In this document: piece after piece, positions 21,199-57,837 of the stretch
Layout: each line of letters opens with the position of its first letter
Position numbering within the stretch: position 1 is the first letter of the stretch
Source: an uncultured Verrucomicrobiae bacterium
GTDB lineage: Bacteria; Verrucomicrobiota; Verrucomicrobiia; Chthoniobacterales; Chthoniobacteraceae
DNA: 64,000 nt
Direction: 5' to 3'
Assembly: GCA_963769025.1 (NCBI GenBank)
Contig: CAVYKI010000003.1
Location: forward strand, 128,001 to 192,000
Made by a program: the position numbers and the translations under genes
The notes under the pieces: model-generated
What the model saw: only the letters and a program-made list of their open reading frames with translations
Database searches by the model: none
Told to the model about the DNA's origin: nothing

Positions 21199-21344
21199 TC
21201 GGGGCGAAGACGGGGTGGCGTCCTCGGAGACTTAACCACATTCGCACCCGCCCCTTAGCACGCGTGATGGCGCGGCAGCCCGCTGCATTTGCAAATGCGC
21301 GAGCATGGCCACGATTCGCACGGACCCGCGCCCGGGAACCCTTG

Positions 21345-26961: not shown

Positions 26962-27006
26962 GCGCACCGGCGTCCCCCGCGCGGAGTCGGGCCGCGATGC
27001 CCGCGC

Positions 27007-30351: not shown

Positions 30352-30602
30352 TTCGATGATTGGATGTGCACCTGCATCGCGTTCGCGATTTGCGTGACTC
30401 AACTTGAGCCCCCCGCCCTCGAAGGCAAGCGTCTCCTCCGCCCCGCCCGTCCCGCGCACTGCGACACTTCCAGCTTTGCCATTCTCCATCTGCTCTCCTC
30501 CATCGCCCCGCTCCCATAAACAGCTTCCACGCGTGGGGGGAAACTGAGAGCTTGGGTGCATCCGGCTCCTTGGATGCCCTGGGGCTGCACGCGTTTCATC
30601 CG

Positions 30603-34012: not shown

Positions 34013-37000
34013 TCAGCGGAATGCCGGGCGAGCTTCGGCACGCGGCCCGGCAGGTCTGCGGGGCGGGGCGCCGATGTCGGTGGCGGTCACGGGATTCGGC
34101 GGCGCGGGAGCCTGTGGCGGTGGCTGCGGCTTGAGTTCGCGGCCGGATTTGGTGACGGGCTTGCCGTCCTTCGTGGAGACATCCTCGACGCGATAGAGCG
34201 ACCCGTCGGCGTGTCGCAGCAGGGGCCGCATTTCGTCGAGGCTCAACGGGCGCGCCCCGCGCCGGCCAAAGACGACCGTCTGCCCGCCGGTCTCGTCGGT
34301 GACGCGATCGCGGTCGAGTCCGCGGGAGACGGAGAGCGCACGATGCTTGGTGGGATACGAGGCGATGAGCCGCGGCGAAGGGCGCGGGCTGAATCCCGCG
34401 GCGCCCTCGACGGTGTCGGGCGAGATCAGCTGGACCACGCGCAGGCCGTTTTTCCCGTCGGCGACGAGCGCATACATGGATGCGGCGACGGAGCCGATCT
34501 GCACGGCCTGCGCGTCATTGATCTGGCCGCCGGCGGTGAACACCTGATCCAGCTTCGGCTTCTCGGGGTTTTCGATGTCGATGATGGCGAGTCCCTCCGG
34601 GCCGTTCGCGACGTAGGCGTAGGTGCGCGCGACGTAGAGCTTGCGCGCGTGGCGGAGCGGAACGCTGGCGCCGGGGATTGCGCGGGGACGTTCGGGGTCG
34701 GCGAGGCTGAGGACCTTCAACCCTTCGTCATCCGTGACGAATGCGTAGAGGAACTGCACGGCGATCGAGCGCGGGTTTTTCAGGAAGCTGCCGGTGAGTT
34801 CGCCGACGAGCCGCGGCTGATCCGGCTTTTTCACATCCACGACGGCGATGCCTCGCGGCGTGCAAATGTACACGCGATGCCCCGCACAGATCGCGTACTC
34901 CGCGCCGGTGAGCCGGCCGTCGGGATTGATATCCACGGCGGTCTTCTTGACGAAGTTGTTCTGCGGATTGCCGTCAAGCAGCGTGTTCACATCGCAGACG
35001 ACGAGCCCGAGCTTGCGGTCGGTGACGAATGCGTAGCCGTACCACGCGGGGATCGGCTGCTCCTCGTTTTCCGGGAGCTGGATGCGCATCGGGTCATTGA
35101 TGAGCGTGCTCGGCAGCGCGACCGACGTGGCGAACGGCGTGCGCACGTACGTCCGCTGCCCAAGCGGCGAGAACGGAGCGGTCACGATGCGTTCGCTGAA
35201 ATCCTTCTGATCAATGTTCGCCACGTCGTACACCTCGAAGCCGCTGGCCCCGTTCGCCGTGTAGAGGTATTCGCCGCGCAGTGTGAGGTCGTTGATTTCG
35301 CCCGAGTGGTGCTCGTGCGCCTCGGCGAGCTTACGGCCGCGCGCGAGGTGCTCGGCGTAGTTTCGCGGATAGGCGTTCTTGTGCATCGAACTGCCGATCA
35401 CCGACTGCGGTTCATCGGCCTCGGTCCAGATCACGGCGTGCAGATCCCCTTCCCCGCCGACGTATGCGTAGCGGCCGAAGAAATTCACCGTGCCCGTGCC
35501 GAAGCCGAGCAGTTGCGTCATCCACGCATTGTTGTCCTTCGCCTTCGCGAGATGGCAGTCGGTGCAGTTCTTCGTCGTGCCGACGCCGCTCGTCGTGTGC
35601 GGGAAATGCGGATTGAACGCCTGCCCGCTGTAGCCGTCGCCGCTCACCGTCTGCTGCTGCGAATAGACCCAGCCGCGGTTCTGCGTCTGCGAGCTCACCA
35701 GCACGGCGCTCGAGGATCGGATCACCGCGAGCCGGTTGTTTTTCACCGTGCCGTCGATGCCGAGCATGAAGACGTCGTCGCGCACCACCTGCGGATTGTA
35801 GGTCGTGAAATTGCGGCTGAGCGCGCCTTCGAATTTGTTCAACGGCACCTTCTGGTTTGCCTTCATGGAAAGGTGGCAGCCGAAGCAGCTCGTCGCCCAC
35901 GACGTGTGGCAGACCTGACAGTCCATGTTCTGGTTCGCGTGCGCGAGCGTGGACTTGCACTGCTTCTCGCCCGGCACTTCGCCCCAAGTCTCGCCGTCGC
36001 GCTGCACGGTCTTCGCGTGCGCGGCCTTCGCGTTGTACTTTTCCGAGACCGGATTGATGACGTCGATCGTCTGCGGGATTTCCCATCGCGCGTCCTTCGC
36101 CATCGTGGAGTTTTGGAAAAGGCGGCGCATCGGCTGGCCTTGCGAATCCTTGATCGGCTCGCCCGTGATTTTGTCCGTCACATCCTCCCACTCGAAGCGC
36201 GGCTTCCACGGCGTGATGCTCTTCGCGAGGTCCACGGGTGTGATTTTGCGCCGGTCCTTCGGGTCGGTCTGCCCCGCGGCGCCGCTCGTGATGAGCGTGG
36301 GCCGCGCGTTGATCGTGCCGTGGCAGTCCACGCACGTGATGGTCGTGGCGTTGCGCGCCTCGCCGTAAAGCAGGCCGTTTCCATGCACGTCCGTCTCGAA
36401 ATGGCAGTCCACGCACTGCATCCCCTTTTCGAGATGGATGTCCTTGAGATGCACGGCGCGCTTGAAATCGCGATGCGCGACGATGTTGTCATCGAGGTCG
36501 AGCCGGTTGCCCTTTTTGTCCTGCTTGAAGACGGCGCGAAAGATCCACCCGTGCCCGTGGTAGTCGGCGAACTGCGTGTGCTTCAGCTTCGGATTCAGCT
36601 CCGCGACCTTTTCCAGAAAATCGAGGTTGCCCCACAGCCCGCGCGCGGCGGCGGCCTCGGGATTTGAGACGGTTGCGCGGACGAGTTCGTCATCCGTCGG
36701 ATCGTGCTGTTCCTTCGGATACATAAATTCCGCATCCGTCTCCTGATCCCACCACGTGTATCCGAGGAACGGATTCACGAAGAGATTTCCCTGATGCATG
36801 TGGCAGTTCATGCACTGCGAGCTGGGGATGGAGCGCGTGAACTGATGGCTGATCGGATGCCCGCGCTCGCGTTTGGAAATCGTCGGGTCCTTCGAGAAGC
36901 TGAGCCCCTGATTTCCGAATTTGTGCCACCAGCCGGAGTTGCTCGGGGAGCGATCGTTCGCATAGACGACGTGGCAGGCGGTGCAGCCGCTCGAACGGTA

Positions 37001-38125
37001 GTCGCCGGGACGATCGTTCGAACCCATGAAGCCGAGCAGCGGATCGTGCAGGCGCGTCTTTTGTGCGCCGAGGAAAATGGGATCCGTGCGGTTCAGCGTG
37101 CCGAGTCCGCGCGGCGAGAGACGGCGCTCGGGCTTGCCGGGAGGCTCGTCGAACGCCGGCAGACCGGTCTGGAGCGGCTCGAAGCCGCCTTTTTCAAAAA
37201 TGCGGAGGATGTTTCCCGGCTGGCTGAGATTGAATCGCGGCAGCGGCACAAGCGACGGAAGGATGCCGAGCCGGCGCGTCTGCTCGGCGGTGGGCTTGAA
37301 CGGATTGTTCAGCTGGAGCGGAACGCCGTCCGCGCCGTAAGCCTGGCCGACGATTGCGTCCTTGCGGTTGATGGAGCCGTTGTTGTACGCGGCGGCGTTC
37401 CAGAGCATCGCGCCGTGGTTCATCATCGAGTGGCCGACGCGATCCACGATGTCGGCGTGGCAGAGCCCGCACGACTGCTTCGCCGCGCGGAGATCGCCGG
37501 GATTGATGAACCGGATGAACTCCGGCGATTCATGATTCAGCACGACGCTGGCGTTCACCGGATTCGCAGACGTCTGCCAGAACTCCGGATTCCGCGGCAG
37601 CACATGCGCCTTTTCGATGGCGAGCCCGCGCGCGGGATTCCCGCCGTGGCAGTCGGTGCAGCCGAGCACGACGTTCGGCGAAGTGTGCATCGTGTGCGTG
37701 TCCGTGGATGTGTGGCACTGGACGCAACCCACGCTCTTTCGGTTCGCCTCTTCCCAAGTCTGGTCGATGAGATTGCGCGGCGGACGCGACACTGAGACTT
37801 TTTCCGGACGCGCGGAGACCGGCGGGCCGAGACCCGCGCCCAGCAATTTTTCCGAAGTGGACTCCATGCCGGGGTGCTGACCTGCGCCCGGCAGTTGCGG
37901 GACCGGATAGGCGCCTGCCGATGTCGGCGGCCCGACGCCTGCGGCGGCGCCCGGAGGCGGCGGCAAAGCGGGAGGGACATCGCCCGGCGAGGGAAGAGGC
38001 GGAAGCTGCGTCCCGCCCGAAGCCGAGGTCGGCGGACCGAGACCGTCCTGCGCGTGCAGGAGCACGAGCGGCACCGCGACCACGAGGCTCGCGAACGCGA
38101 TCAAGAGTGGCGGAATGGGGCGCAT
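34013..38125 (-). CDS. Secreted decaheme c-type cytochrome with C-terminal LVIVD-type repeat propeller
   Basis: Signal peptide; 10 CxxCH (CVQCH, CTDCH, CGLCH, CTACH, CMNCH, CVDCH x2, CQVCH, CFGCH, CTDCH); repeats such as YAYVANGPEGLAIIDIENPEKP and YALVADGKNGLRVV. Confidence 0.88.
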   Translation of the reverse strand: MRPIPPLLIAFASLVVAVPLVLLHAQDGLGPPTSASGGTQLPPLPSPGDVPPALPPPPGAAAGVGPPTSAGAYPVPQLPGAGQHPGMESTSEKLLGAGLGPPVSARPEKVSVSRPPRNLIDQTWEEANRKSVGCVQCHTSTDTHTMHTSPNVVLGCTDCHGGNPARGLAIEKAHVLPRNPEFWQTSANPVNASVVLNHESPEFIRFINPGDLRAAKQSCGLCHADIVDRVGHSMMNHGAMLWNAAAYNNGSINRKDAIVGQAYGADGVPLQLNNPFKPTAEQTRRLGILPSLVPLPRFNLSQPGNILRIFEKGGFEPLQTGLPAFDEPPGKPERRLSPRGLGTLNRTDPIFLGAQKTRLHDPLLGFMGSNDRPGDYRSSGCTACHVVYANDRSPSNSGWWHKFGNQGLSFSKDPTISKRERGHPISHQFTRSIPSSQCMNCHMHQGNLFVNPFLGYTWWDQETDAEFMYPKEQHDPTDDELVRATVSNPEAAAARGLWGNLDFLEKVAELNPKLKHTQFADYHGHGWIFRAVFKQDKKGNRLDLDDNIVAHRDFKRAVHLKDIHLEKGMQCVDCHFETDVHGNGLLYGEARNATTITCVDCHGTINARPTLITSGAAGQTDPKDRRKITPVDLAKSITPWKPRFEWEDVTDKITGEPIKDSQGQPMRRLFQNSTMAKDARWEIPQTIDVINPVSEKYNAKAAHAKTVQRDGETWGEVPGEKQCKSTLAHANQNMDCQVCHTSWATSCFGCHLSMKANQKVPLNKFEGALSRNFTTYNPQVVRDDVFMLGIDGTVKNNRLAVIRSSSAVLVSSQTQNRGWVYSQQQTVSGDGYSGQAFNPHFPHTTSGVGTTKNCTDCHLAKAKDNNAWMTQLLGFGTGTVNFFGRYAYVGGEGDLHAVIWTEADEPQSVIGSSMHKNAYPRNYAEHLARGRKLAEAHEHHSGEINDLTLRGEYLYTANGASGFEVYDVANIDQKDFSERIVTAPFSPLGQRTYVRTPFATSVALPSTLINDPMRIQLPENEEQPIPAWYGYAFVTDRKLGLVVCDVNTLLDGNPQNNFVKKTAVDINPDGRLTGAEYAICAGHRVYICTPRGIAVVDVKKPDQPRLVGELTGSFLKNPRSIAVQFLYAFVTDDEGLKVLSLADPERPRAIPGASVPLRHARKLYVARTYAYVANGPEGLAIIDIENPEKPKLDQVFTAGGQINDAQAVQIGSVAASMYALVADGKNGLRVVQLISPDTVEGAAGFSPRPSPRLIASYPTKHRALSVSRGLDRDRVTDETGGQTVVFGRRGARPLSLDEMRPLLRHADGSLYRVEDVSTKDGKPVTKSGRELKPQPPPQAPAPPNPVTATDIGAPPRRPAGPRAEARPAFR

Positions 38126-40457
38126 CAATACTGGAGCGTGACGGTGAGGAAGCCGTTGTAGAGGAAGTCATCGGCCTTTCCCGCGTCTCTGCGAGCCGAA
38201 GCCATCGACGGTCACGGTATTGGCGCGGTAGATGTCGCGATAGCCGCCGCCGGGAACGAAGAATCCCATGCCGATGGAGATCACGATGTTGTCCGTGAGC
38301 AGCGGCCGGTACTTGAAGCCGAAGCTCGCATCGAGTCCGAGATCATTGCGGAGCCGATCGGTCTGGAGCGCCACCTTCACCGCCTCGGGCTCGGCCAGCC
38401 AGATGTAGTTCACATTGAGAAACGCCTTCAGCTTTGGCGTGACGTCGATGTCAGTGCCGACGCCGAGGATGATCGCACCGGGGTTCACGAAGTTCGACTG
38501 CCCCTCGGTCTTGCTCGTGCGCAGGTTCGGCACGAGCGAGTCGCGCTGTTTCAGATTCACGGCCGTGCCCGCGAGATTGATGCCCTCGTGCGTGTACCAA
38601 CTGAACGGACCGCCGATGAAACTCGGATTGTCGAGGATGCTGTCGAATCCGCTGGCCGTGCCGTTCGTCGGGTTCGGGTCACCGCTCGCGTAAAAGCGCG
38701 GAAAATTTGAGCCGGTACCAGTCGCGATCATAGCTCAGCTCGATCGCGGCCATCTGCGCGTTGATCGTGACCTCGCGGCCCGCGAGCGAGTTGTAGTCCT
38801 CCTTGCCGAGCACCTGGTAAAACGCGTGGGTGACATTCAGCCGGCCGATGTGCCCGTCGCCGGTCCAGCCGAGGTAATACGCATTCACCGAGTTCGAACT
38901 CGGGCGTCCCGCTGGCGGTGTCCCGGACGGTGCCGACATTCAGCGGGCGCGTGAGGAAGCCGTTCCGTCGTAGTGCGTGCCGCCGTCGTCGAAATTCATG
39001 TGGAGGCTGACCTGCGCGGTGTAGCCCTTCCACAGGAAGTCCTGCCGGAACATGTTCGCGATGACGACCTGCTGATGCCGCGAGTCGAACGTGTTCAGGC
39101 CCGAGTAGGTGTCCTTCTCGCGCATGTTGAAATACGCGAGGTTGTATTGCGTCCGGTTGTTGTCGCGCGTGCCGAAGATGCGCGCGCCGAGGTTCGTGTC
39201 GGAAAAGATGAAGCCGCGGAAATCCGAGATGAACGGCTGGTTGCCGAAGCGCGATGAGATCGAAGTCGTAGTTGTCCGACGTGTCGCGGACGTGGATCTC
39301 GGCGAACGCCTCCTGCAGCGCAAAGTGGTCCTTGAACCGCGTGGTGTAGCGGCTCCCGCTGAAGTCGTTGTTTCCGCCGCCGGTGGCCGTGTTGTTCGTC
39401 GTGACGGTCGTGGCGGTGGTCGTCGTGCCATTGATCGGCACGAGCGCCTGCGCATTTCCCAGCGGCTGGAGCTGCGAGGAGAGGTAGTTGAACGCCGTGG
39501 CGGGATTCACGTTCGACGTGAACAGCCCGGGATTTCCGGACTGCGGATTCGCGCTTCCCGCGACGCCGGGGACCGCGCCGATGGCGGAGGTGTTCGGCGC
39601 GAAAGTGGCGCCGCCGTCCGAGCCGCGCGGGTCGGGATTCAGGAGGTTGTTTTCCCGCACGCGCGTCCAGTTGTTGTTGTACACCGCGTTCACGCGGATG
39701 AGCCAGCGTCACCGGCTTGAAGGCCGTCTCGCCCTTGAAAAGGTCGAATGCGAACGACACGTCGTTGGAAAACATCATCTGCTCGCCGCGGCCGAAAAAC
39801 TCCGCGCTGTTCGGCGTCGCCGTGCTCACGCCGCTGGGCACGGGCAGCTTGCGGACCTCGTAAAGCGCGAAGTCCTTCGCGGTGAGGTTCAGGAAAATGT
39901 CCTGCCCGATGATCGGCAGATCGCCCTTCAGTTTGCTCTGGCGGTACGGGTGCCAGAGCCGCGGCGTGTCGTACGTGTACGGCGTCTCGGTCGAGGGATC
40001 GCGGTAGCGCTGCCAGTGCGGGAAATGGCAGCGTCCAGCGGTTCGGCACCGCCGTCGAATTTGGCAGCAGGCCGAGGCCCTCGCGGCCCATCGGATACGA
40101 GTTGTAGGTGAATGTCTTCTTCACCGGGTCATGGCCGAGGACCATGCCGCGCGGCAGCTTCAGCGAGCCGGGAAGAATCGGATCCTCCGGAAAAAGGAGC
40201 GGGTCGGTCGCGCCCGGCGAAAGGCCCGGCTCGTTCCAGACTCCGGGATCGGGATTGAACACCGCGGGGGACTTCGGCGGCTCCTCCTGGACATTCCCGG
40301 CGGTCGGGCGCAGCGCCGGCGTCCCTTTGCGAAAACGCGGCCGCGCGTCCTCGCCGTTCGCGTCGGCGGCGCCGGTCACGATCACCGCTGCGCAGACTAC
40401 GAGGCGGCGCGTGGATGCGCGCTGGGGACTGAGGCGGCGTTGGCCAAGTCTTGGCAC
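38125..40457 (-). CDS. Probable outer-membrane beta-barrel protein (several frameshifts)
   Basis: Six ORF fragments join into one protein with amphipathic strands (ALQEAFAEIH, QPFISDFRGFIFSD, YYLGWTGDGHIGRLNVTH, LGVGTDIDVTPKL); C-terminus NGFLTVTLQY* ends in an aromatic residue; stop overlaps the decaheme start (TGATG). Confidence 0.72.
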
Positions 40458-40582
40458 GCGCCGGTCATACGGTCCCTACGCGATGCGCGGCAATGCAAAA
40501 TGCCTATGCTACGCGAGATGAAAAGCTGCGTGAAAGTTTGACGCGCAAACGGCAGGGCGGTACTCGACAGCCTCCATCGTTC

Positions 40583-43176
40583 ATGAAGACGTCCATCTTC
40601 GCCACGGCTGCGCTCCTGTGCGCGATCCTCGTGCCGCAAAAGCTGCGGGCGCAGGACAGCGGGGAGCAGCTCACGGCGGCCGAGGTCACGCAGATCATCG
40701 CGCAGGCGGCGGCGGATGCGACGTGGAGAAACCCGGGAGCCATCATCGCCGTCACCGACCGCGAGGGATTCGTCCTCGGCGTCTGGGACATGCAGGGCCG
40801 CATTCCGAGTCCGCTGCCGGCATTCAGCCCTTTCCGATCTGGACAACAATCCCACGGCGGTCCGCACCTACGGCCTCTTCGCAGGCGCGATCACGCGCGC
40901 GGGCACGGCGGCATTCCTGAGCAGCGACCAGGAGGCGCTCACGACGCGCACCGCGGGATACATCATCCAGCAGCATTTCCCGCCGGGCGTCGCCAACACG
41001 CCTCCCGGCCCGCTCGTCGGCGTCGGTTTCTCGAGCCTGTTTTTTTCCGACATCAACCGGCTCAAACAGATCGCGAATCCGCTCTCAGCCGGTTCGCCAT
41101 TCGATCCGTCCGACCTCCGCGCTTCGCTCGCCCCCGGCGACACGGCCCGCATTTCGCCCGGCATCCGCGGCAACACGATCATCCCCGGCTCGCTGAACGA
41201 TTCCCCCGGCGGCGTGCCGCTCTACAAGAACGGGCATCTGGTCGGCGGCATCGGCGTCACCGGCGACGGCTACCCGACGAACCTCGCGCCGGCGGCGGCG
41301 ATTTTCCTGAACGAGACGAACACGACCTCCACCCCGGGCTTCGTGCCGAACGCGCTGAGCGACGCCGACGAGCAGGTCGCGCTCGCGGGCCAGCGCGGCT
41401 TCCGTCCCTCGCCGTACATCGTCGCGACGAATATCCTCATCAACGGAATCCGCATCCCGTACGTGTGGCAGGCCGTGCAGGACATCGTGGACGCCACGGG
41501 CTCCGTGCCGCTGACCAGTCTGCCGGGACGCATCGTGGACGGGTTTCCGATCCAGGCGCCGCCGCCGCCATTCCCGTATCCGGTCACGCAGCTCGGCGGC
41601 GTGACGGGCGAATTGCGCGGCCCTGTCGTGTTCGATTCGCCGGCGAATCCGTCCGGCACGATCCGTTTCATCGACGACCCGGTCTCCGCGATTCCGGGCA
41701 GGCAGCTCATCGGCGGCCAGAGCCGGCTGACCGCGGCGGAGGTCACGCAGATCATCACCAAGGCCGCGCAGCGCGCGAACATCACGCGGGCCGGCATCCG
41801 CCTGCCGCTCGGCACGTCGGCGAAGGTCTTCATCGTCGTGGTCAACAATCCCGACAAGGACCTCGAGGCCCCGGCTGTCCTCGGGACGTTCCGGGTCGGC
41901 GATGCGACCGTTTTCTCGTGGGATGTCGCGGTGCAAAAGGCGCGGACGTCCGTCTTCTTTTCAAACAGCCAGCTCGCGATGTCCACGCGCGCCGTCGGCT
42001 TCCTCGCGCAGAGCAATTTTCCGCCGGGCATCGACGGCAAGGCGTGGGGTCCGCTGTTCGGTTTTCAGGAAGCCGTGTCCTTGAAGCGCGCGCCGGTGAC
42101 GGGCGCGTTCCCGGGGAATCCGAACCTGCCGAATGGCATCACCATTTTCCCCGGCGGCTTTCCGCTCTACCGGAACGGCGTCGTCGTCGGCGCGATCGGC
42201 GTTTCCGGCGACGGCGTCGATCAGGACGACATCATCGCGGCGAGCGGATGCGCGGACTTTCTGGCGTATGACACGCATCCGCTCGGACACGTATTCGTAC
42301 GGCGGCGCGCGGCTGCCTTACGCGAAATTCCCGCGCAACCCGGTCGTCGCGGTGGACGCAGCCATCGACCCCGTCCCCGTCCCCGACGCGCCCGAGATGG
42401 ATTCCTCCGCGGTCGTCCGCTTTTCGCCAAAGGACGTCAGCGGTGACGGCGTCGCGGACCTGCTCTTCCAGAATTCCTCCGGCCAGGTCGCCGTCTGGTA
42501 TATGAACGGGAAAGGCTCCGCGTCGGGACTCGACACGCTCTACAGCGGCAACCTCGGCGACTGGAAAATCGTCGGCGCGGCGGACATCAACGGCGACGGC
42601 AACGCCGACATCCTCTTTCAAAACACGCTCGGCCAGATCGCCGTCTGGTACATGGACGGCAGCGGTGGACGCTCCGGCGTCGCCTACATCTACGGCGGCG
42701 GGCTCGGCGATTGGAAAGTCGCCGGCATCGCGGACATGAATGGCGACGGCAACGCCGACATCCTTTTCCAAAACACCACCGGGCAGATCGCCGCTTGGTA
42801 CACGGACGGCAAAGGCTCCATCTCCGGCACCGCCGACATCTCCAGCAGCGGGCTCGGCGACTGGAAAGTCACCGGCGTGGCGGACATGAACGGCGATGGG
42901 AATGCCGACATCCTCTTCCAGAATACCCTCGGCCAGATCGCCGTGTGGTACATGGATGGCAAAGGCGCGCGCTCCGGGAGCGCCTACATCCACGCTGGCG
43001 GCGTAGGCGACTGGCGGGTCGTCAACGTCGCGGACATGAATGGCGACGGCAATGCGGACATCGTCTTTCAGAACACCTCCGGCCAGGTCGCCGTCTGGTA
43101 TATGAATGGCAAGGGTTCCATCTCCAGCACCGCCTACATCTACAGCGGCGGCCTCGGCGACTGGCGCCTGCGCTGA
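40583..43176 (+). CDS. Secreted protein with two GlcG/HbpS-like heme-binding domains and C-terminal FG-GAP-like repeats (frameshifts near 40835 and 42270)
   Basis: Signal peptide; LTAAEVTQII twice; IAVTDREG; PGGVPLYKNGHLVGGIGVTGDG and PGGFPLYRNGVVVGAIGVSGDGVDQDD. Confidence 0.8.
42433..43173 (+). repeat. Five tandem 150-bp (50-aa) FG-GAP/VCBS-like repeats
   Basis: Unit DxNGDGNADILFQNxxGQIAVWYMxGxG...GLGDWK; first two units start at 42433 and 42583. Confidence 0.92.
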
Positions 43177-43257
43177 ACACGCATCGCGCATCGGGCGCAC
43201 GGGGATGCCACGCTGCGCAAACATTCAGGTGGCGAAACCGCGCCTCACCGCGCCGGC

Positions 43258-44397
43258 TCAGGACTGCGGGAGCTGCTTGAGGACCGCTTCCAATTCCTGC
43301 AACGCCGCGGCGAACTTCGACGGCTCGAAGTCCTCCTGTTCACGCGCCTGCCGGAAGACGGCATCAATCGACTTCTCGAATGCCGGCGCCTCCGTTCCGC
43401 CTTCCTTTTTCCACGCCGCCCACAGCCGGTTGATCGCCGGCGCGAGCACTTCCGCCCGCCTCCGATGTTCCGCCTTCCCGAGCTTCGCGTCGCCAAATTC
43501 CGAGTGGGCCGCGACGTAGGCCTTCAGCTGGGACATGAGCTGACTCCGCGTCCATTTCGTCCGCGACGCTTCGCGCGCGAGGCGATCCGCGGCGGATTTC
43601 ATCGCGGCGAAATCCTCCCCTCCCGTGAGTTCCTTTTTTCCGGAATCGGTCTTGCGCAGCAGCCACACGAGCGCGTTCCAACGCACGACCAGGTGCTCGT
43701 CCCGCTGTGTCCCGAGCTTCCAGCTCATCTCGCGAAGGGCGACCGCCTGGCCCGTCAGCCATGAACGCGGCCCGATCGACGGCCGCTCGTCCTTGTAGTG
43801 CGGAGGCTGCGCGACCGACTGCCCGTCGAGTTCAAAATAGAGTTCCGGGTGCCCCGCGCGCCGGATCGGCTCGTCGAGATTCAGGTGGCAGGCGACGCAC
43901 ACGTTGGCCCGGCCATGGATGTCGTTCATGTCGCGCAGCCCGAGGCCGACGATTTGATGATACGTGACGTCCGTCCTCGTGTGGAAACGCAGCCACGCCT
44001 CCGCCGGCCCGTGGCAAGCCTCGCAGCTCACTCCGCGATCCGCCTTCGGCAGCCCCTTCACCAGCCGCTCCGGCGCGACGGCCTCCATCGGCGAATGGCA
44101 CACGGTGCATTGCGCCGCCTTGCCGGGGTCGCCCGTGATGCCGAGCGCCTCGGCGATGCGCAGCGAGGTTCCTTTTGCCAGAATGCCAGCAGCCACCGCG
44201 TGCCGGTCCTTTCGCTCGAAAATGAGCGATTCATTGTGCCCCTTGCCGCCGCCGTGGCAGCTCGACGAGGCGCACGATTGCGCTCCCGTGAAATGCGCCT
44301 TCGCGATTGCCAGTTCATCCGCCGCGCACACCGGTGTCGGAAGGGCGCGCGAAAGGCTGGCGATGATGACGGCCGGGAGTATGCGTCGGAGTGCCAC
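43258..44397 (-). CDS. Secreted tetraheme cytochrome (c554-like)
   Basis: Signal peptide; FTGAQSCASSSCH (CX4CH), CTVCH, GVSCEACHGP, CVACH; AGHPELYFELD. Confidence 0.82.
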   Translation of the reverse strand: MALRRILPAVIIASLSRALPTPVCAADELAIAKAHFTGAQSCASSSCHGGGKGHNESLIFERKDRHAVAAGILAKGTSLRIAEALGITGDPGKAAQCTVCHSPMEAVAPERLVKGLPKADRGVSCEACHGPAEAWLRFHTRTDVTYHQIVGLGLRDMNDIHGRANVCVACHLNLDEPIRRAGHPELYFELDGQSVAQPPHYKDERPSIGPRSWLTGQAVALREMSWKLGTQRDEHLVVRWNALVWLLRKTDSGKKELTGGEDFAAMKSAADRLAREASRTKWTRSQLMSQLKAYVAAHSEFGDAKLGKAEHRRRAEVLAPAINRLWAAWKKEGGTEAPAFEKSIDAVFRQAREQEDFEPSKFAAALQELEAVLKQLPQS

Positions 44398-44657
44398 GGT
44401 GCGCGCTTCTACCAGTTCCCGCAGTGAAGTCGAACACGGAAAACCTCGGAGCGCGGGTGCATCGGTCGCTGCGCGCTGCGATTCCGCACTGGCACCGCAC
44501 TCGCGCGCCTGTTACGAAGCCCGGCGTCCGATTCCATGGCCAAGACTCCACAGAACCTCGCGAACGGAGAACCCTCGAACGGGGAGGAAGGGAAGCCCGC
44601 CGCGTCCATGCGATTGGAACGGATGCGGAATTCCGTCGTCCGCCACGCGACTGTGCC

Positions 44658-45596
44658 ATGAAAATCGACCGTTCTCACAGCCTCTGGATCCTCTTCGTCG
44701 TCCTCGCCACCTGCGGCGCGACTCTGCTGTACGTCGCGAACTTCTTCCCGCACCTCCTGCCGTTTCCGTTTCGGCTCCCCGCCATGCTCGGCAAGGCGCC
44801 GCCCTCGCACAACACCTACGGCGGCACGCCGCTCGGGTTGATTTTTGGCTCCGTCGCCTTCCTTATTTTTCTTTTCGCCTCCGCGCTCGGCATCCGGAAA
44901 AAGAAGCGCACGTGGCCCATCGGCAGCGTGCAGTTCTGGCTGAAAGGGCACATCTGGCTCACGATCCTCACCATCCCGCTCGTGCTCTTTCACTGCGGAT
45001 TCCACAGCGGCGGCATCCACACGAGCGCGCTCATGATCCTCTACGCCATCGTCATGGGCTCCGGATTTTTCGGCCTCGCGCTGCAGCAGTTCATGCCGCG
45101 CCTGATGCTGGAACGCCTGCCGCGCGAGGTGGTCTTCGAGCAGATCCCCTACCTCCGTAATCGCCTCCTCGAATCCGCGAACAAACTCCGCGACACCCTC
45201 GCGAAATCGCAACCCGTCACCGCAGCCGCGGGCTCGCAGCCGCAACCGCCTGCCGCCGTCGCGGACGATTCCTCCGTCCAGGTGCTCATCCGCTTTCTGG
45301 ATCGCGACTGTCTCCCTTACCTTTCCGCAAAACGCGGCACCCGCCATCCGCTCGGCGTCGAACAGATCGCGGCGAGCACGTTCAGCAGGCTGCGGATGAA
45401 TGTGGAGGAGCAATGGAAGCCGCGGGTGGACGCCATGCAAAACTGGTGCACCGACCGCCGGCTCATGGATCTCCAGACGAAACTCCAGCACTGGCTGCAC
45501 GGCTGGCTGCTCCTCCACGTGCCCACGTCGTTTGCGCTGCTCATCTTCACGGCATGGCACGCCGTCGTCGCCCTGCGTTTCATGCTGCCCGGGTAG
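44658..45596 (+). CDS. Integral membrane protein, ferric-reductase-like putative diheme cytochrome b
   Basis: About five hydrophobic helices; two H-x13-H pairs (HIWLTILTIPLVLFH, HVPTSFALLIFTAWH). Confidence 0.75.
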   Translation: MKIDRSHSLWILFVVLATCGATLLYVANFFPHLLPFPFRLPAMLGKAPPSHNTYGGTPLGLIFGSVAFLIFLFASALGIRKKKRTWPIGSVQFWLKGHIWLTILTIPLVLFHCGFHSGGIHTSALMILYAIVMGSGFFGLALQQFMPRLMLERLPREVVFEQIPYLRNRLLESANKLRDTLAKSQPVTAAAGSQPQPPAAVADDSSVQVLIRFLDRDCLPYLSAKRGTRHPLGVEQIAASTFSRLRMNVEEQWKPRVDAMQNWCTDRRLMDLQTKLQHWLHGWLLLHVPTSFALLIFTAWHAVVALRFMLPG

Positions 45597-45605
45597 TTCA
45601 CGCGC

Positions 45606-47216
45606 ATGGACGGCAACTCTCCAACGCCAAAGCAGTCCTCCCAAAAGTATTGGGGCAATCTCGGCTACTTCCGGAAATCGCACTACATGCGCCGGCTCCG
45701 CGGCTGGTGCTTCGCGATCACCGCCCTCTGCGCGATCGTCGCGGCCGCGACCTATCACTACTGGGGCACCGGCCGGATTTTCAGCAAAGGTCCCATCTCG
45801 CAAAACCACGCGAGCTTCGCGAACGACTGCCGCGCCTGCCACATCGACGCGGAGATCGACACGCTCAAGGCCGCGCTTTCCGAAAGGCCGAGCGGCGCTT
45901 CGCTGCAGACGATCCTCACCGCGGGCAGTTCGCGCGATGGCAAGTCCGCCCACTGGCCGGCCGAGCGCTCCCGCATGGATGAGGCCTGCCTGAAGTGCCA
46001 CGCAAATACCGCCCTGCACGCCCCGCAAACCGCCGCGCTCGCGCTCCGCAACGTTTCCACCGAGATGGCGCAGGTGCATGCCACGCAATGTTTCACCTGT
46101 CACCGCGAGCATGTCGGCCATGGTGCGATCGTCCCTCCGGACCGCCAGACCTGCACGTCGTGTCACAACAGCGCCGAGGAACTCCGGCTCGCGCGCACCT
46201 CACTCCCGCTCAAAGGCCAGCCCGTCGCCGCGACCGGCGAAAATCGCGACCTCGGCGACGGATTGATCCGCTTTCTCGCGCCAGCGGAAAAATCGCGCCC
46301 GGTGAAGCCCTTCGCCGACTACACCGGGCATCCGCCGTTCAGCTACGAAAAGGCCGGCCTCCGCGATCCGGCGGACCTGAAATACAACCACGCACGCCAC
46401 GAGCGCGACGATGTCACCGTCCTCGGGCCGAACAAAAAGCTCGCCTGCGCCGACTGCCACACGCCCGGCCCCGGCGGCGCATACTACCAGCCAGTGAGCT
46501 ACGCGAAGCACTGCCAGCAATGCCACTCGCTGCAGATTCTCCCGGATTTGCCAAACCTGCTCATCCCGCACGGCGACGCGCAAAAGGTCCGCTATTTCCT
46601 CGCGAGCATCCGGGTGGCGATCGAGAACGCGCTCCGCGCCGAAGGCACCACCGACGCGGCGGAACTCTCCAAACGGGCGGAGACCGAACAGCAAACCCTG
46701 CGCAACCGCGGACTCGATACGCTCGTCGAACTCGAACAGCGCGTCTTTTTCGACGGCGACCCGAAGGACAGCCCGAACGACCGCCGCATGCGCGCCGGCA
46801 ACCGGAAATTCCTCACCGAATGCGCCAAATGCCACACGGTCAACCCGGCCGAGCCCGGCAAATCCCCGCGCGTGAACCCGCCCAACATGGCCGAGCGCTG
46901 GGTGCAGCGCGGCCCGTTCACTCATCTGCCGCATACACACATGGAATGCGCGGACTGCCACGCCACCGCGCACACGAGCAAGCTGACAAGCGACATCCTC
47001 ATGCCGCCGCAAAAACTCTGCGCCGAATGCCACCGTCCCCCGGCCACCCCAAGCCCGCTCGCGGTGGCCAGCTTCAAATCCCCCACCCCATCGACAGCCG
47101 CCGAAGCACTCGCAGCCAAACAGCGCCACAGCGGCGGCATCAAATGGGACTGCCAGAGCTGCCACGCATTCCACGCCCCGGCCGCCCCCAGCCCATCGGC
47201 CCCGGCGAATCGCTGA
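45606..47216 (+). CDS. Membrane-anchored decaheme c-type cytochrome (c3-like)
   Basis: N-terminal TM helix, GPISQNHA, 10 CxxCH (CRACH, CLKCH, CFTCH, CTSCH, CADCH, CQQCH, CAKCH, CADCH, CAECH, CQSCH). Confidence 0.88.
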   Translation: MDGNSPTPKQSSQKYWGNLGYFRKSHYMRRLRGWCFAITALCAIVAAATYHYWGTGRIFSKGPISQNHASFANDCRACHIDAEIDTLKAALSERPSGASLQTILTAGSSRDGKSAHWPAERSRMDEACLKCHANTALHAPQTAALALRNVSTEMAQVHATQCFTCHREHVGHGAIVPPDRQTCTSCHNSAEELRLARTSLPLKGQPVAATGENRDLGDGLIRFLAPAEKSRPVKPFADYTGHPPFSYEKAGLRDPADLKYNHARHERDDVTVLGPNKKLACADCHTPGPGGAYYQPVSYAKHCQQCHSLQILPDLPNLLIPHGDAQKVRYFLASIRVAIENALRAEGTTDAAELSKRAETEQQTLRNRGLDTLVELEQRVFFDGDPKDSPNDRRMRAGNRKFLTECAKCHTVNPAEPGKSPRVNPPNMAERWVQRGPFTHLPHTHMECADCHATAHTSKLTSDILMPPQKLCAECHRPPATPSPLAVASFKSPTPSTAAEALAAKQRHSGGIKWDCQSCHAFHAPAAPSPSAPANR

Positions 47217-47238
47217 GACCGTTCAGCAAGGGGGCAAT

Positions 47239-49699
47239 TTACTTTTTCCCTGCCGCGCCTTCCATCACGCGGCGGAGCAGTTCCTCTCCGGTCATGCGTG
47301 AAGCGGCTTCGTGCGGGCAGGCGGAGACGCAGCGGGGTTCCGCCACTGCCAGCTTTCCCTCGGCGTCGCAGAGGTCGCAGGTGACGGCCTTTGGCTGCGC
47401 AAGCGAGAGCAGATGGTCGGGGTGATCGGGGTCCGGGAGTTCGACGCGGCGATGCTCGTTTGGCACCATCGTGATGTTGCCGTAGGGGCAGTTGTCCGCG
47501 CAGAGGCCGCAGCCGATGCAGTGATCCTCGATGACGATCTGGAGGTGTTTGCCGCGATGGATGGAATCGACGGGGCAGCCGATCATGCAGTGTGGGTCGG
47601 TGCAGGAGCGGCAGGCGGTGGCGACGGTGAAGCTCTCGAAGCGCACGCCGTCGCGGAGCATGCGCGTGACTGGGACGCCGTGCGAGTCTGTGCCGTGCTG
47701 CTGGACGCAGCCCTTCGTGCATTCGTCGCAACGCGTGCAGAGTTCCATGTCGAGCACGAGGAGCTTCCGCCCTTCGTAGAGGCCGTGCTCGACGTATTCG
47801 CGCAGCAGCGGGTGGCCCTCCACATTGCTGCGAAGCGCCGCGAGGGATTGCTCGACCAGGCGGCGCCGGAGGACGGGGAATTCGCGCACGAGCTGCAGGA
47901 AATCCGTGCGGCTGAGACGCGCCATTTCGAGCGGGCCGAGCGCCGAGCACGTGGCGTTGCGGAAGCCCGCGGGGACGGCATTGGCGAGGTCATCGCCTGC
48001 CGCATCGAGCGCGGCCGCGAGGGCGAGGTCCACTTCCTCGGCGGTCTTGCGGACATCCTGCGGAGAGATGGCGAGCAGGCTGATCTCGCCGAGGATGGCG
48101 CCGGGGCCGCGGGAAAGGACGCCGGTCTCCTTTCCAAAACGCCGGACGCCGACCCGCACGTGGCCGAGCCGGACGAGATACATGGCATTCGCGCGGTCGC
48201 CCTGCCGGAAAAGCGTCTGCCCGGGACTGACGCGCACGAAGGTGAGCCGCGGCCGGAGGAAATCGACGATGCTTTTGAACTCGTCCGCGCCGATGCCATC
48301 GAACAGATCGGCCCCCTGCAGCACGAGGTCGAGCGCGCGCTCGCGGTAGTCGGCCTCGAAGCGCTCGCGCTGGGACGGGAGCCGCATGAGGCGGTCGAGG
48401 ACGTTGCGCCGCACCTCCCACACTTCGGCGTCGCCGACCGCGTGCACGCTGGCCGTCCGCGGCGTCCCGCTCAGGCACGCCATCTCGCCGAAGATCATGT
48501 CTTCGGGGGTGAGCTGAAAATGCAGCGGCGACGCGTCCGGTTGCCGGACGGTGACCTCGAAGTTCCCGCTGCGGATGAGGAACGCGGTGTTGCCCGCGTC
48601 GCCCTGCCGGCACACGACCTGGCCCGCCTTCAGCCTGCGGCGAATGACGAGGCCCTGTTGCCAGAGGAGGAATTTCGGCGAGATGCCGGCGAAGGCCGGG
48701 TCGGAGATCAGTTCCGCGGGCGAGAGCACTTCCTTCGAATGATCGCCGGCGGGGATATTGATGCGCGCGCCGGTCTTGAACGTGATGGCGCTCGTCGGGC
48801 ACGAGACCATGCACTCGCCGCACTGCACGCAGCTCGAATTTCCCATCGGCTCGTTCAGGTCGAAGCTGATCCCGGCGGTCGCGCCCTTGCCGGTCCGGCC
48901 GATGACGTGATTCTCCTGCACCTCGTCGCACGCGCGCACGCAGCGGTCGCAGAGGATGCACGCCGAGTGATCCACGAGGAAGACGGGCGATGAGGCGTCC
49001 AGTGCGCGGCGTCCGACATTGGGCGCAGCGGCGGGCGGCGGATCCGAGAGGACATCGAGCGCGAGGCGCGACGGTTCCGCGCCGCAACGGTCGACCATCT
49101 GGCCGAGTTCGTTGAACGGCGCGAGTTCCTGATCCAGCGCGGGCGGCTCGAACGGCTTGAGATGATTCACCGCGAGCATTTCCGTCATCACTTTCACCGT
49201 CTGCCGCACGCGTTCGCCGTCCTTTCCCGGATCGTTCATCGTGAAGACTTCCATCCCCTCCTTCACCTGATGCTGGCACGCGGGGAGCAGCTTGCGCTCG
49301 GCGGCGCGCTTGCCGCGCTTTTGCCCGTAGATCTGCACGACGCACATGCGGCAGACCGCCACGGGCGTCATGTGCGGCAGATGGCACAGCGTCGGGATCG
49401 GGATCTTCGCCTCGTCGCCCGGCTGCTTCACGTAGAGCTTCACTCGCGGCGTCGTAGATGGTCGTGTAGCGCGGCGTCGTCCGCCCTTCGATGTCCAGCA
49501 CGATGTTGCCGTTCGCGTCCTTCAGCGGCTCGGCGAGCGGCACGGTCACGGACTGGCCGTCGATCTGGAGCGTGACGGTCTTGCCGTAGTCGCCCTCCGT
49601 CGGGGAATCGAGGCGGACGAGCTGGCCGTCGATGTCGCGGCTGAACAGCCCTTCGTCGTCATCGCGAATGAACAGGCCTTCCCCAAGTCCGGGAATCAT
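47239..49699 (-). CDS. Multidomain Fe-S protein: NuoG-like [2Fe-2S] + 2x[4Fe-4S], two cNMP-binding domains, C-terminal 4x[4Fe-4S] (frameshift near 49443)
   Basis: IPTLCH...CRMC...LPAC; CILCDRCVRAC and CVQCGECMVSCP; FGEMACLSGTPRTASV and LGEISLL...RNATC; CTRCDEC...C, CRSC...CMIGCP, CIGCGLCADNCP, CDLC...CVSACP. Confidence 0.85.
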
Positions 49700-51751
49700 G
49701 GCGTGCCCTCCGTGCGTGTTCCCGATGGCGACAGGTGGCTCGCGACGTCATCGGGGAAAAAGGTGAGCGCCGTGAGCAGCGGCATCGGCACCGAGCGGCC
49801 GAGCCCGCAGATGGAAGCCAGCTCGATCGCCTTGCCCATTTCCTTGATGAGCGGGACGAGTTCATCGTTCCAGCGATCGGCGCTGATTTTTCCCGCGAGG
49901 AGGTGCGCGCCGAGCGACGCGAACTTCTGCGACCCGATCCGGCACGGGACGCATTTCCCGCACGACTCGTTGCGGAAAAATTCGATGGAATTGACGGCCT
50001 GCTCCACCATGTCGCGGCCCTCGGCATAGACGACGAGCCCGGCGCCGAGCGCCTGCGTGGGGCTCAGGCGCGCGGAACAGGTTCAGCTCGAGTTCCAGAT
50101 CGAGGATGTCGAGTTCCGTCGCCGCGGGATCGAATCCGCGGCGAGCCGCAAGCGCCTGCCACGCCTTGTTGTTCACATGGTCGCGCGGCAGGCCGTCGGG
50201 CGCGGTCAGCTTCGCGGGCAGAAAGCCGCCGGACGGTCCCGACGGCGCGAAGCCCTTGAGCGCCCGATCACCCGCGATGCCCTGGCAGTACTGCTCGCCG
50301 TGGATGAGTTCGCGCAGGGTCATTCCCATCGGCACCTCGTACACGCCGGGCCGCTTCACGTCGCCGGAGACGGAGAAAAAGCGCCGGCCCTGCCAGCCGT
50401 TCACGCCGAGCGCGGCGTAGGTCTTGCCGCCGTTGATGACGATGTACGGCACCCACGCGAAGGTCTCGACGTTGCTCACGAGCGTCGGGAGATCGTGCAG
50501 GCCGTTGGTCTCGAGCTTCGGCGGCATGTTGCGCGGCTCGCCGCGGCGATCGGACATCGCCTCGATGAGCGCGCTCTGCTCGCCGCAGATGTAGCCGCCG
50601 GGGCTGACGAAGACCGAAATCGGAAAAGGCCGGCCAAGCACCGACGCATTCGGCCCGCAGAATCCGAGCTTCGCCGCGCGCTCGATCTCGGCACGGCATG
50701 CCTCGATCTGCTCGTCGTATTCGTGGCGGATGTAGATGAACCCCTGCGTCGCCTCGGTGATGAGCCCGGCGAGGATCACGCCCTCGACGATCATGTGCGG
50801 CGCGCGGAGCAGCAGCTCGCGGTCCTTGAAGGTGGCCGGCTCGCTCTCGTCGCCATTGACGACGATGAACGCGCGCTCGTCCGTCTCCCGCTGCCGCGCC
50901 TTCCGGACCGCATCGCGCACATCGCGCCACTTTTGCGTCGCCGGGATGCCCGCGCCGCCCATGCCGCGAAGATCCGCGTCCTTGAGTTCATCGAGCAATG
51001 CGTCCGCCCATCCGCCGAGCGCCGCGCCCTTCGCCCAATCCGTCTCCGTCTGCCAGCACAGCACCGCGCCGGCGACCTCGGGCTCCATCGGGAAATCAAC
51101 GCGCATCTGGCGGATGCATCCCTGGCGAAATTCCTCCACGCGCTCCGAGCCCCATCCGGATTGTGTCTTGAGAGCCTCCGCGGCCGCCGCGAGCGACGTG
51201 TCGCGCGCCGCGATCGCCTTTCGCACACCGAGATACTCCGGCGTCTTGCCGCCGTACGGATCGATCATCCAATCCTTCGCCGCATAACCTTGGTCCGCAT
51301 CGTGATCAGGCTCGAGCGGCTCATCCCGCACGCACGCCTCGACCACGCCTCGCAACTCATCAGCCGAACGGCCAAGATAGTACTGCTCATGTCCCGAACC
51401 CTGCACGCTGACGCAAGCCGCCGGCGCCCGATCGCACCGGCCCACGCACGAGACTCCCTCGACCGCGACATGCTCACCGACGAGCGATTGCAACTCGCGC
51501 AGCACCGCTCCCGAACCCGCAAGATGGCAGGTCGTGTCCCGGCAAACGCGCAGGACGACCTTCTTCGGCGGCGAAAGCTGAAAGTGAGGGAAGAAACTCG
51601 CCACCGCCTGCAGGCGATACTGCGGCACGCCCGACTCGTCCGAAAACTGTTCGAGTGCCTCTTTTTTCAAGAACCCGAACTCCTCCTGAATCCGCTGCAA
51701 CGCAGGGACCAGCGTCGCGCCGTAAAGATTGAGAGTCGTCCCGGAGCTCAT
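49696..51751 (-). CDS. NuoE-NuoF-like fusion (NAD(H)-binding flavoprotein with [2Fe-2S] and [4Fe-4S]), frameshift near 50060
   Basis: VASFFPHF, CRDTTC...SCVGRC; LRGMGGAG, NGDESEPATFKDR, YICGEQSAL, NVET, SGDVKRPGVYEVPMG, ESCGKCVPCRIG...SICGLG; ATGA overlap with the downstream gene. Confidence 0.88.
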
Positions 51752-57479: not shown

Positions 57480-57837
57480 TGGAGGCGAGGGGAGTTGAAC
57501 CCCTGTCCTGAGAACTTTTGACACAAACATCTACACGCTTAGCCGTGCCATTAATTTAAGCCTCACGCTGCGGGCGGGCGCGCCACGCGAGGCCGGTCGT
57601 CCACGGATGAAGTCTCGCTCCCCGGCGCGGTCGCTCCGCCGGAAAGCCAGCCTGCTAGTCGTCGTCCCCGAGGCCTAGCAGGCGTCGGCTCGGGAACGTC
57701 ACAGCACTTAGGCTGCGAGGGCCAGTTCTTCGGTTTTGGCTTTTGTGTTTGTTGCCCAGGATTGGTAACGCGGCCAACCAGGCTTCCGCGGCATGCCGTC
57801 TGCGCCTCGAATTTTCAGTCGAAACCAGTACGCCCCC
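57480..57837 (-). ncRNA. ssrA: tmRNA
   Basis: 5' GGGGGCGTACTGGTTTCGAC; 3' GGACAGGGGTTCAACTCCCCTCGCCTCCA; internal tag ORF AKTEELALAA* at 57708-57740; 358 nt. Confidence 0.95.

Follow-up and report, generated by a model that had tools for sequence, protein, structure and literature searches.

The 64,000-nucleotide (nt) stretch of contig CAVYKI010000003.1 analysed here, which we call the window, comes from an uncultured Verrucomicrobiae bacterium of the family Chthoniobacteraceae. At positions 34013-51751 it carries eight genes, denoted A to H (Table 1), which form a real, conserved and modular system, apparently not described before and interpreted here as an electron conduit, transmembrane or trans-envelope in extent. 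A first-pass annotation, made from the sequence alone, had described eight contiguous genes at this site, and every one of them was found there. Because this part of the window is 65% G+C, many spurious open reading frames (ORFs) overlap the real genes, and the eight were resolved by codon-position G+C, three-frame reading and comparison with relatives. Intact orthologs from a related genome (G003; 63-80% identical) served for the domain and structure work. The earlier count of 10+10+4 heme motifs is also right, in that 23 CxxCH motifs and one CxxxxCH motif together give 24.

Table 1. Genes of the cluster and neighbouring features, with positions in the window (aa, amino acids; cNMP, cyclic nucleoside monophosphate)
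Feature	Position	Strand	Description
A	34013-38128	-	1371 aa, secreted, 10 CxxCH, LVIVD repeat (Pfam E 4e-14)
B	38125-40457	-	outer-membrane beta-barrel candidate, about 780 aa, no Pfam match
C	40583-43176	+	signal peptide, two HbpS/GlcG-like domains, FG-GAP repeats (Pfam)
D	43258-44397	-	secreted tetraheme protein, 3 CxxCH and 1 CxxxxCH, c554-like
E	44658-45596	+	inner-membrane protein, 312 aa, no Pfam match
F	45606-47216	+	decaheme protein, 10 CxxCH, N-terminal hydrophobic anchor
G	47239-49699	-	Fer2_4, 4Fe-4S, two cNMP_binding domains, 4Fe-4S (Pfam)
H	49696-51751	-	NuoE-NuoF fusion: 2Fe-2S_thioredx and Complex1_51K (Pfam)
GH63/MGH1-like glycoside hydrolase	30552-33311	+	adjoins the cluster
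ORF of 275 aa	33176-34003	+	between the GH63-like gene and A, no Pfam match
Transfer-messenger RNA (tmRNA) gene	57480-57837	-	tag peptide AKTEELALAA

Transcription switches repeatedly between the strands and divides the genes into five units (H>G, E>F, D, C and B>A), with D transcribed divergently from E-F and C divergently from B. Thus the eight are all present, but they do not constitute one operon. Across genomes, a conserved core of H-G-E-F plus D can be distinguished from A-B-C, which is a frequent but dispensable addition. F begins 9 nt past E. The stop codon of H overlaps the start codon of G (ATGA), as does that of B with the start of A (TGATG), and these overlaps suggest translational coupling within each pair. 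Genes flanking the cluster specify a GH63-like hydrolase, a small protein of unknown type, and an RND efflux pump together with a TetR regulator. In agreement with the first-pass annotation, a Pfam scan of the cluster and its flanks detected no hydrogenase, molybdopterin enzyme or further Nuo subunit.

About ten frame breaks interrupt these genes: roughly five or six in B, two in C (near 40830 and 42260), one in G (near 49443-49455) and one in H (near 50060-50067). A reading of B, C, G and H as pseudogenes was ruled out by the equally broken state of rpoB and rpoC at positions 1-4440 of the window (C3:124523-132440 of G000, the genome carrying the window). In this assembly, rpoB falls into nine pieces in differing frames across 3.7 kb, and rpoC is broken at three or more sites; we therefore attribute the breaks in the cluster to assembly indel errors. 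The orthologs of the broken genes are intact in relatives. On inspection, none of the break sites was obviously homopolymeric. Indel errors are pervasive in the assembly (83% complete, 13 contigs), and every gene call from this genome needs frame repair.

The cytoplasmic part of the predicted chain resembles the NADH-oxidising modules HoxEFU, NuoEFG and FdsGBA. H matches 2Fe-2S_thioredx (E 1.5e-21) and Complex1_51K (E 4e-36), and the NADH_4Fe-4S region that would hold the N3-type [4Fe-4S] cluster is matched in the intact G003 ortholog (E 9e-19). G begins with a HoxU/NuoG-N-like region for one [2Fe-2S] and two [4Fe-4S] clusters, followed by tandem cNMP-binding domains and then by a DmsB/HydN-type module with four Cys groups. 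The Cys groups are conserved in the alignment, and sequence matches in the PDB include NuoG-like N-termini, the tandem cyclic-nucleotide-binding (CNB) domains of the protein kinase A R-subunit, and HycB/NrfC. Although the NuoE, NuoF, N3 and HoxU-like regions exceed their Pfam cut-offs, the proteins fall below the equivalog cut-offs of NCBIfam (H against nuoF_fam, 286 bits with a cut-off of 559; G against HoxU, 111 bits with a cut-off of 333, and against FeFe_hydrog_A6, 112 bits, also below cut-off). They differ further from the known modules in that NuoE and NuoF are fused, that G extends into two cNMP domains and a four-cluster ferredoxin, and that no hydrogenase, formate dehydrogenase or complex I partner occurs in the cluster, its flanks or the scanned related loci. 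The genome encodes its own complex I and heme-copper oxidases at other sites, and H/G is therefore an extra NADH module.

The cNMP_binding match in G (E 3e-34) covers two stretches. In the first domain, the phosphate-binding-cassette residues G86/E87 and P95/R96 are invariant in all 17 proteins compared, which comprise G and a form, G', that lacks the HoxU-like N-terminus. The second domain has the motif G-E-I ... R-x-A-T-C, likewise invariant in 17 of 17, and an insert of about 33 aa is found in G-type proteins. By these residues, G carries a CNB fold with a phosphate-binding cassette, and ligand binding is predicted.

E is predicted to have five transmembrane (TM) helices and a cytoplasmic helical insert, and contains two Hx13H pairs, H98/H112 in TM3 and H287/H301 in TM5. 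These histidines are invariant in 11 of 11 orthologs. Across 105 near-full-length representatives of the family (28-53% identical), H98 and H112 are present in all 105, H287 in 101 and H301 in 100. The near-invariance of the pairs backs the first-pass proposal that E binds b-type heme, and the pairs are well-motivated candidate ligands of two b hemes. An AlphaFold2 (AF2) model with a mean predicted local distance difference test (pLDDT) score of 71 places the pairs within helices 88-113 and 251-309. According to the positive-inside rule, both helices would run from inside to outside, with H98 and H287 on the cytoplasmic side and H112 and H301 on the periplasmic side; this orientation would provide the geometry of a two-heme transmembrane relay. 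The family is large, with 2724 matches at E<=1e-3 and 512 at E<=1e-30 in a profile search of 1.84 billion representatives. The sole profile match of E, to DUF4405, reaches 16.9 bits where the cut-off is 26.7. Among 18 longer, fused family members scanned for 'Rosetta stone' domains none was found, and one gave DUF4405 below cut-off.

A complex between the C-terminal part of G and E was predicted with an interface score (ipSAE) of 0.57, which the tool rates as weak support, compared with 0.00 for the best control, and in calibration the mark applied was reached by 116 of 157 solved complexes and by two of 215 mismatched pairs. Purpose-made alignments were used, the partners had pLDDT values of at least 78 and contact agreement was at least 96%.

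Downstream of E, the decaheme protein F matches Cytochrom_c3_2, Cytochrome_C7 and the MtrC/MtrF II-IV domain in Pfam. Its orthologs are found in 22 of 41 related genomes (G000 counted) and in 19 of the 24 other genomes of the same genus. The C-terminal half of the tetraheme protein D, about 200 aa, is helical. PDB sequence searches with A and F gave no relative. Genome-wide, G000 has 10 ORFs with at least three CxxCH motifs; with so few other multiheme cytochromes, the organism is not a classical metal reducer.

The remaining genes encode a putative terminal module. A opens with a Pro-rich stretch, continues with a sparse decaheme domain of about 750 aa and ends in an LVIVD beta-propeller. Each of its 10 CxxCH motifs is conserved in 12 of 12 orthologs, and identity between lineages is 50-55%. 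Atlas clusters that share the combination of LVIVD and cytochrome domains are reported from several phyla and are treated as leads only. G000 also contains a second, frameshifted A paralog (C7:67-4164, about 40-57% identical in pieces), which lies at the start of its contig with the upstream neighbours cut off.

The neighbouring protein B gave no Pfam family at E<=0.1 and no PDB sequence match to its profile. An AF2 model of the G003 ortholog, built from an 11-sequence alignment, has about 18 long strands. Foldseek returned 40 matches at E<=0.001, and all among the matches listed are outer-membrane barrels. AlgE ranks first (E 1e-8), and behind it come BamA, OccD, chitoporin, LptD and TonB-dependent receptors. 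The orthologs end in a conserved, beta-signal-like ...LYNGFxTVTLTY, and in the window the true C-terminus (...LYNGFLTVTLQY, then stop) is encoded at 38125-38170 in another frame. The prediction of a barrel thus holds, on a model of low confidence.

Comparison across genomes supports the view that the genes are a functional unit. A search with an alignment of E, using one genome per species, found 185 relatives, of which the best 80 loci were kept; all are from Verrucomicrobiota, mostly Chthoniobacterales. Neighbours were counted by tblastn with the eight proteins and G', and many of the 80 loci run into contig ends. Near E we found F in 76 loci, D in 57, G' in 31, H in 21, G in 20, A in 18, C in 17 and B in 13, and F is directly downstream of E in 76 of 80. 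Seven loci contain all eight genes within 10 kb on either side of E. At least four gene orders were recognized among the carriers: that of the window (A- B- C+ D- E+ F+ G- H-), A- B- C+ D- E+ F+ H+ G+, G- H- D- E+ F+ A- B- C+, and H+ G+ D- E+ F+ C- B+ A+. B and A remain adjacent in every arrangement that holds both. Re-ordering into at least four arrangements without dispersal is the signature expected of selection for proximity.

The modular character of the set is seen in the 35 of 80 loci with at least 8 kb on each side of E. H/G are present in 11 of these, and all 11 also have A, B or C. Another 12 have G', so that H and the N-terminus of G can evidently be missing, and A, B or C occurs in none of the 12. 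Related genomes contribute to these counts, which are therefore drawn from non-independent samples. In three genomes (G012, G015 and G029), D-E-F stands alone and the H>G pair is on another contig; A orthologs are present in G012, G018 and G029. In the closest relative of the source organism (G001), a 7.8-kb insertion separates F from G (L011 and L012 joined, 19632-27459).

The same linkage was recovered in a second, distant lineage. An alignment of a distant subfamily of E was used to scan contigs from metagenomes, which gave at least 466 relatives; 80 were kept, and an E ORF was called in 75. Most of these contigs have a G+C content of 57-60%, with about 70% in a subgroup. With the query proteins, E shares a median of 34% identity and F a median of 25%. 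A G-type protein is encoded directly upstream of E, in the same direction, in all 43 testable metagenome loci, H-G-E is found in 27 of 30, and F immediately follows E in 47 of 48. In 18 of 23, D lies upstream of E in divergent orientation. The median gaps are 3 nt between G and E and 11 nt between E and F. In the high-G+C subgroup, C comes after F within the operon, and A-B are found upstream; metagenome loci with C immediately behind F include L113 and L120. Domain sets matching those of the window were confirmed by Pfam in one metagenome locus.

By gene order and spacing, H-G-E-F thus makes up a single operon in a lineage 25-50% identical, and this arrangement argues more strongly than any other finding that the NADH module, the cNMP/Fe-S protein, E and the decaheme protein cooperate. 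The lineage may be Acidobacteriota, as hinted by an Atlas lead and by a CarboxypepD_reg N-terminus on B. That the genes should occur together elsewhere followed from the first-pass annotation, and they do so in several orders and in two lineages. The gene content, cofactor motifs, conserved linkage and modularity of the system are established here. Just past D, nine of the 80 metagenome loci (including L156:953-2356) encode a pyridine-nucleotide-disulfide oxidoreductase that is SthA- or dihydrolipoamide-dehydrogenase-like.

Homologs of class III nucleotide cyclases are encoded beside the cluster in 15 of the 160 loci (eight from Verrucomicrobiota and seven from metagenomes). A class III cyclase with a CHASE2 domain is encoded convergently to F in several metagenome loci and has a FecR-like neighbour (e.g. 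L156:10321-13591); further loci with a cyclase are L128:16513-16917, L086, L091, L095, L096, L098 and L100. The homolog in G000 is on contig C10 (about 468-469 kb), away from the cluster. At L119:10644-12257 (+), the gene immediately behind that for the decaheme protein encodes a fusion of a type-II NADH dehydrogenase (Pyr_redox_2 and NDH2_C) with a cNMP-binding domain, a second NADH-oxidising enzyme that bears a cyclic-nucleotide sensor. Because of the cyclase beside the cluster and the L119 fusion, second-messenger control appears likelier than a degenerate domain. The cyclic-nucleotide sensing proposed earlier therefore gains support both from the conserved cassette residues and from the recurring neighbouring cyclase gene.

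Taken together, we judge it somewhat better than an even chance (roughly 55%) that the cluster specifies a modular chain for electron export, which would either bypass the quinone pool or supplement it. We infer the electron-transfer steps, the outward direction, the gating and the acceptor as follows. NADH would be oxidised by H, a NuoEF-type flavoprotein with flavin mononucleotide and Fe-S cofactors. Electrons would enter the HoxU-like clusters at the N-terminus of G and move past the tandem cNMP module to the four-cluster ferredoxin domain, which might dock on the cytoplasmic face of E. The two putative bis-His b hemes of E would then take the electrons across the inner membrane, and the membrane-anchored decaheme F and the soluble tetraheme D would carry out periplasmic transfer. 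Where present, A, the barrel B and the accessory protein C would form the terminal module, and the acceptor would be either extracellular or imported through the barrel. The cNMP domains, lying between the Fe-S modules of G, probably gate the wire in response to cAMP or cGMP from a sensor cyclase encoded either next to the cluster or far from it.

Outward flow is favoured because it would be downhill in redox potential and would run with the membrane potential, whereas reduction of NAD+ would be uphill on both counts. Export of NADH electrons in this direction would consequently dissipate proton-motive force, as NOX enzymes do, and this cost offers a rationale for a gate. Possible benefits include redox balancing under oxygen limitation, iron acquisition and humic reduction.

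Several types of known system share parts of this architecture. As in MtrCAB of Shewanella and in OmaB-OmbB-OmcB/Pcc and Ext of Geobacter, a barrel gene is coupled to a decaheme gene and more periplasmic multiheme proteins are present, as expected for a trans-envelope heme wire. The barrel-cytochrome adjacency is evident in the B/A overlap, with B assigned as a barrel from a model of pLDDT 44. However, Pfam and NCBIfam searches found no sequence homology. The DmsE model TIGR03508 scores 25 bits with D and 23 with F (cut-off 192), and the OmcA/MtrC model TIGR03507 gives 26 bits (cut-off 209). In addition, A has a beta-propeller whereas MtrA and MtrC have none. The known conduits are fed by quinol via CymA, ImcH or CbcL, in contrast to the NuoEF/Fe-S/di-heme-b entry predicted here; nothing CymA-like is present in the cluster, and F scores 19 bits against NrfH (cut-off 134).

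The entry into the membrane is more reminiscent of the NOX enzymes, ferric reductases and MsrQ-Fre, in which a cytoplasmic NAD(P)H-flavin module also feeds two bis-His b hemes on two parallel TM helices without quinone. The histidine pairs on TM3 and TM5 of E agree with the two bis-His sites of NOX, STEAP and MsrQ proteins, as judged from the predicted topology. In contrast to the Ferric_reduct superfamily, E has no Ferric_reduct match in Pfam, has five TM helices rather than six, and carries Hx13H on both helices. Unlike NOX, its predicted donor is a separate multi-cluster Fe-S protein rather than a fused FAD domain, and its predicted acceptor is a multiheme c chain.

Hmc, Tmc and DsrMKJOP are built from the same three layers, namely a periplasmic multiheme c protein, an integral cytochrome b and a cytoplasmic Fe-S protein. 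In those complexes electrons flow inward to sulfite reduction and there is interaction with menaquinone; the cluster described here, by contrast, is NADH-linked. By Pfam and NCBIfam searches of E and G, it also has no NarI/HdrE- or NrfD-type membrane protein and no HdrD-like CCG protein, and the matches to DsrO and HmcA are weak and local (22-37 bits, with cut-offs of 200-400).

The closest published proposal concerns the same phylum and comparable habitats. In freshwater Verrucomicrobia, putative clusters in which a novel porin gene lies beside multiheme cytochrome genes have been described, with porins of at least 20 strands, periplasmic cytochromes with eight conserved heme sites, and homologs in 'Ca. 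Udaeobacter' (He et al. 2017, PMC5615132). The model given there leaves the inner-membrane step unknown, and eight-heme periplasmic cytochromes with an open inner-membrane step also appear in PMC6344600. By comparison of the descriptions, A differs in having 10 CxxCH motifs, and the account of anaerobic respiration in PMC5615132 mentions no NuoEF, cNMP or b-type protein. An ORF with eight heme motifs in G000 (C3:494528-496936) was considered as part of a porin-cytochrome pair of this type and dropped because no barrel-like ORF adjoins it. Full-text literature searches, with subscription journals and supplements outside their scope, found no description of the H-G-E-F set; a Tenderiales preprint on an LVIVD protein and a Desulfatiglans paper on NuoEFG proved unrelated. 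The first-pass view of the system as undescribed therefore stands, in that profile, PDB and full-text literature searches revealed neither a characterised complex nor a publication to match it.

A number of observations weigh against an export chain that bypasses or supplements the quinone pool. The eight genes are split among alternating strands in the window, and in the distant lineage A is downstream in eight of 25 testable loci and B in five of 19. A was also not found in searches of G015 (95% complete) and G008 (90% complete). The E family is patchy, occurring in nine of 301 evenly drawn Verrucomicrobiota genomes. A PDB sequence search with the E profile found no relative, and fold searches returned generic helix bundles only (best Foldseek match in the PDB, E 0.14); a second, wider fold search gave chemoreceptor and TorS sensor bundles with Z<=10.1. 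The ferric-reductase family was listed by neither fold search, which by itself speaks neither for nor against membership. With no relative in Pfam, the PDB or the fold searches, the argument for heme binding by E is the conservation of its histidines. The score of the G-E complex sits in the weak-support band of the tool, since only 18 of the 157 solved complexes, but both of the passing mismatches, reached the mark with an ipSAE of 0.60 or less. For B, the model confidence is low and there is no sequence relation to MtrB or PioB. A link to quinone is possible for di-heme b proteins that have a cytoplasmic Fe-S partner, HdrDE and DsrMK being examples. Finally, the physiological benefit of an export that would dissipate proton-motive force is not obvious.

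We hold more tentatively, and at odds clearly below even, a stronger form of the export model. According to this proposal, H-G-E-F(-D) would be a new class of quinone-independent, cNMP-gated NADH:cytochrome c oxidoreductase founded on an unrecognised di-heme b family of about 2,700 representatives. With A-B-C it would be a bacterial counterpart of the eukaryotic NOX enzymes and ferric reductases that spans both membranes of a diderm cell. It would act as a regulated valve, dissipating proton-motive force while NADH electrons are discharged onto extracellular Fe(III), humics or O2. It is possible, although on balance doubtful, that the core chain is the same and that the terminal module is instead periplasmic, with A as a multiheme/beta-propeller reductase of a soluble substrate, B as the channel admitting that substrate and C in an accessory or cofactor-handling role. 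The best structural matches of B are substrate channels and transporters (such as AlgE, OccD, chitoporin and TonB-dependent receptors) rather than MtrB, and A is heme-sparse, with 10 hemes in about 750 aa, and carries a propeller; enzymes that combine hemes with a propeller include cd1 nitrite reductase and hydrazine synthase. Moreover, the conservation of A (50-55%) is far above that of F (25%) and E (34%), as would be expected of a catalytic subunit. Yet no catalytic site or substrate can be named for A, and the overlap of the B stop with the A start follows the fashion of porin-cytochrome genes. LVIVD propellers, furthermore, are mostly described as surface proteins in a preprint on Tenderiales.

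Rather unlikely, in our estimate, is that E is a quinone-reactive cytochrome b of a quinol:cytochrome c or NADH:quinone oxidoreductase (Cbc/ImcH/CymA- or Hmc/Tmc-type), with H-G as its cytoplasmic input or output and no bypass of the quinone pool. Most known di-heme b subunits that have a cytoplasmic Fe-S partner are linked to quinone or phenazine, and F has residual similarity (19-23 bits, far below cut-off) to the quinol-linked NrfH and DmsE-type cytochromes. In addition, 12 of the 35 well-flanked loci have E-F with neither H/G nor G' (and none of these has A, B or C). This occurrence of E-F without a G-type neighbour counts against the export chain as well; E-F must therefore be capable of sitting apart from its donor or of using another. 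On the other side, E shows no similarity to NarI, NrfD or the cytochrome b families in Pfam, a G-type protein stands right upstream of E in 43 of 43 distant loci, G'-E-F operons exist, and genomes without local H/G carry H/G elsewhere. Operation of the chain inward, with electrons from a donor outside the cell or in the periplasm (for instance Fe(II), reduced humics or a cathode) reducing NAD+ in the cytoplasm, seems very unlikely. NuoEF-type modules are reversible, as established for Hox and Fds enzymes, the multiheme/barrel systems Mto and Pio operate in the oxidising direction, and the first-pass annotation did not fix the direction. However, inward flow would oppose the membrane potential, NAD+ at -320 mV would need a donor far more reducing than typical c-type hemes, and an energy-coupling subunit (an ion pump or a bifurcating partner) was encountered in none of the 160 loci examined. 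Scarcely credible is a partly coincidental neighbourhood in which E-F or H-G are the only true partners. The five strand-alternating units, the unlinked modules of some other genomes and the recurrence of an unrelated-looking GH63-like gene, which illustrates that island hitch-hiking can occur, are what such a view could draw upon. It is largely refuted by synteny, since the set is reshuffled yet clustered in at least four orders within one bacterial order, and again at about 34% identity in E. Among the well-flanked loci, whose genomes are not independent, A, B or C accompanies H/G in 11 of 11 and is present in 0 of 24 without H/G.

To our knowledge, the extracellular electron transfer routes of diderm bacteria described so far all start from the quinone pool, and we know of no general explanation for the exit of electrons from the inner membrane in multiheme-rich uncultured lineages of soils and lakes. 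An export chain of the kind favoured here would offer a concrete alternative entry, in which a NuoEF/HoxU-type NADH module is wired to a new two-heme membrane protein. Its built-in switch would be a rare case of cAMP or cGMP acting directly on a respiratory electron wire. The cluster also brings together three protein families (E, B and A) without a characterised member. Relatives of E are encoded at 185 genome loci and at least 466 metagenome loci, and soils, peat and lakes harbour the carriers in abundance; these include Chthoniobacterales and one or more further lineages. If the chain is active, it would bear on redox balancing, on iron and humic cycling, and on unexplained extracellular reductase activities of aerobic heterotrophs. 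If the stronger form of the export model is true, common aerobic or facultative heterotrophs of soil and freshwater could discharge NADH electrons outside the cell.

Three further features of the window were recorded. Homologs of the GH63-like gene lie beside the cluster in 14 of the 160 loci, mostly just past D (L100 and L104 of Verrucomicrobiota, and 12 metagenome loci), and this gene may have travelled along with a transferred island or may be a ninth gene associated with the cluster. The 275-aa ORF is kept beside A in G001 (66% identity) and in none of the 160 other loci. Beyond the other end of the cluster, the window encodes the tmRNA listed in Table 1.

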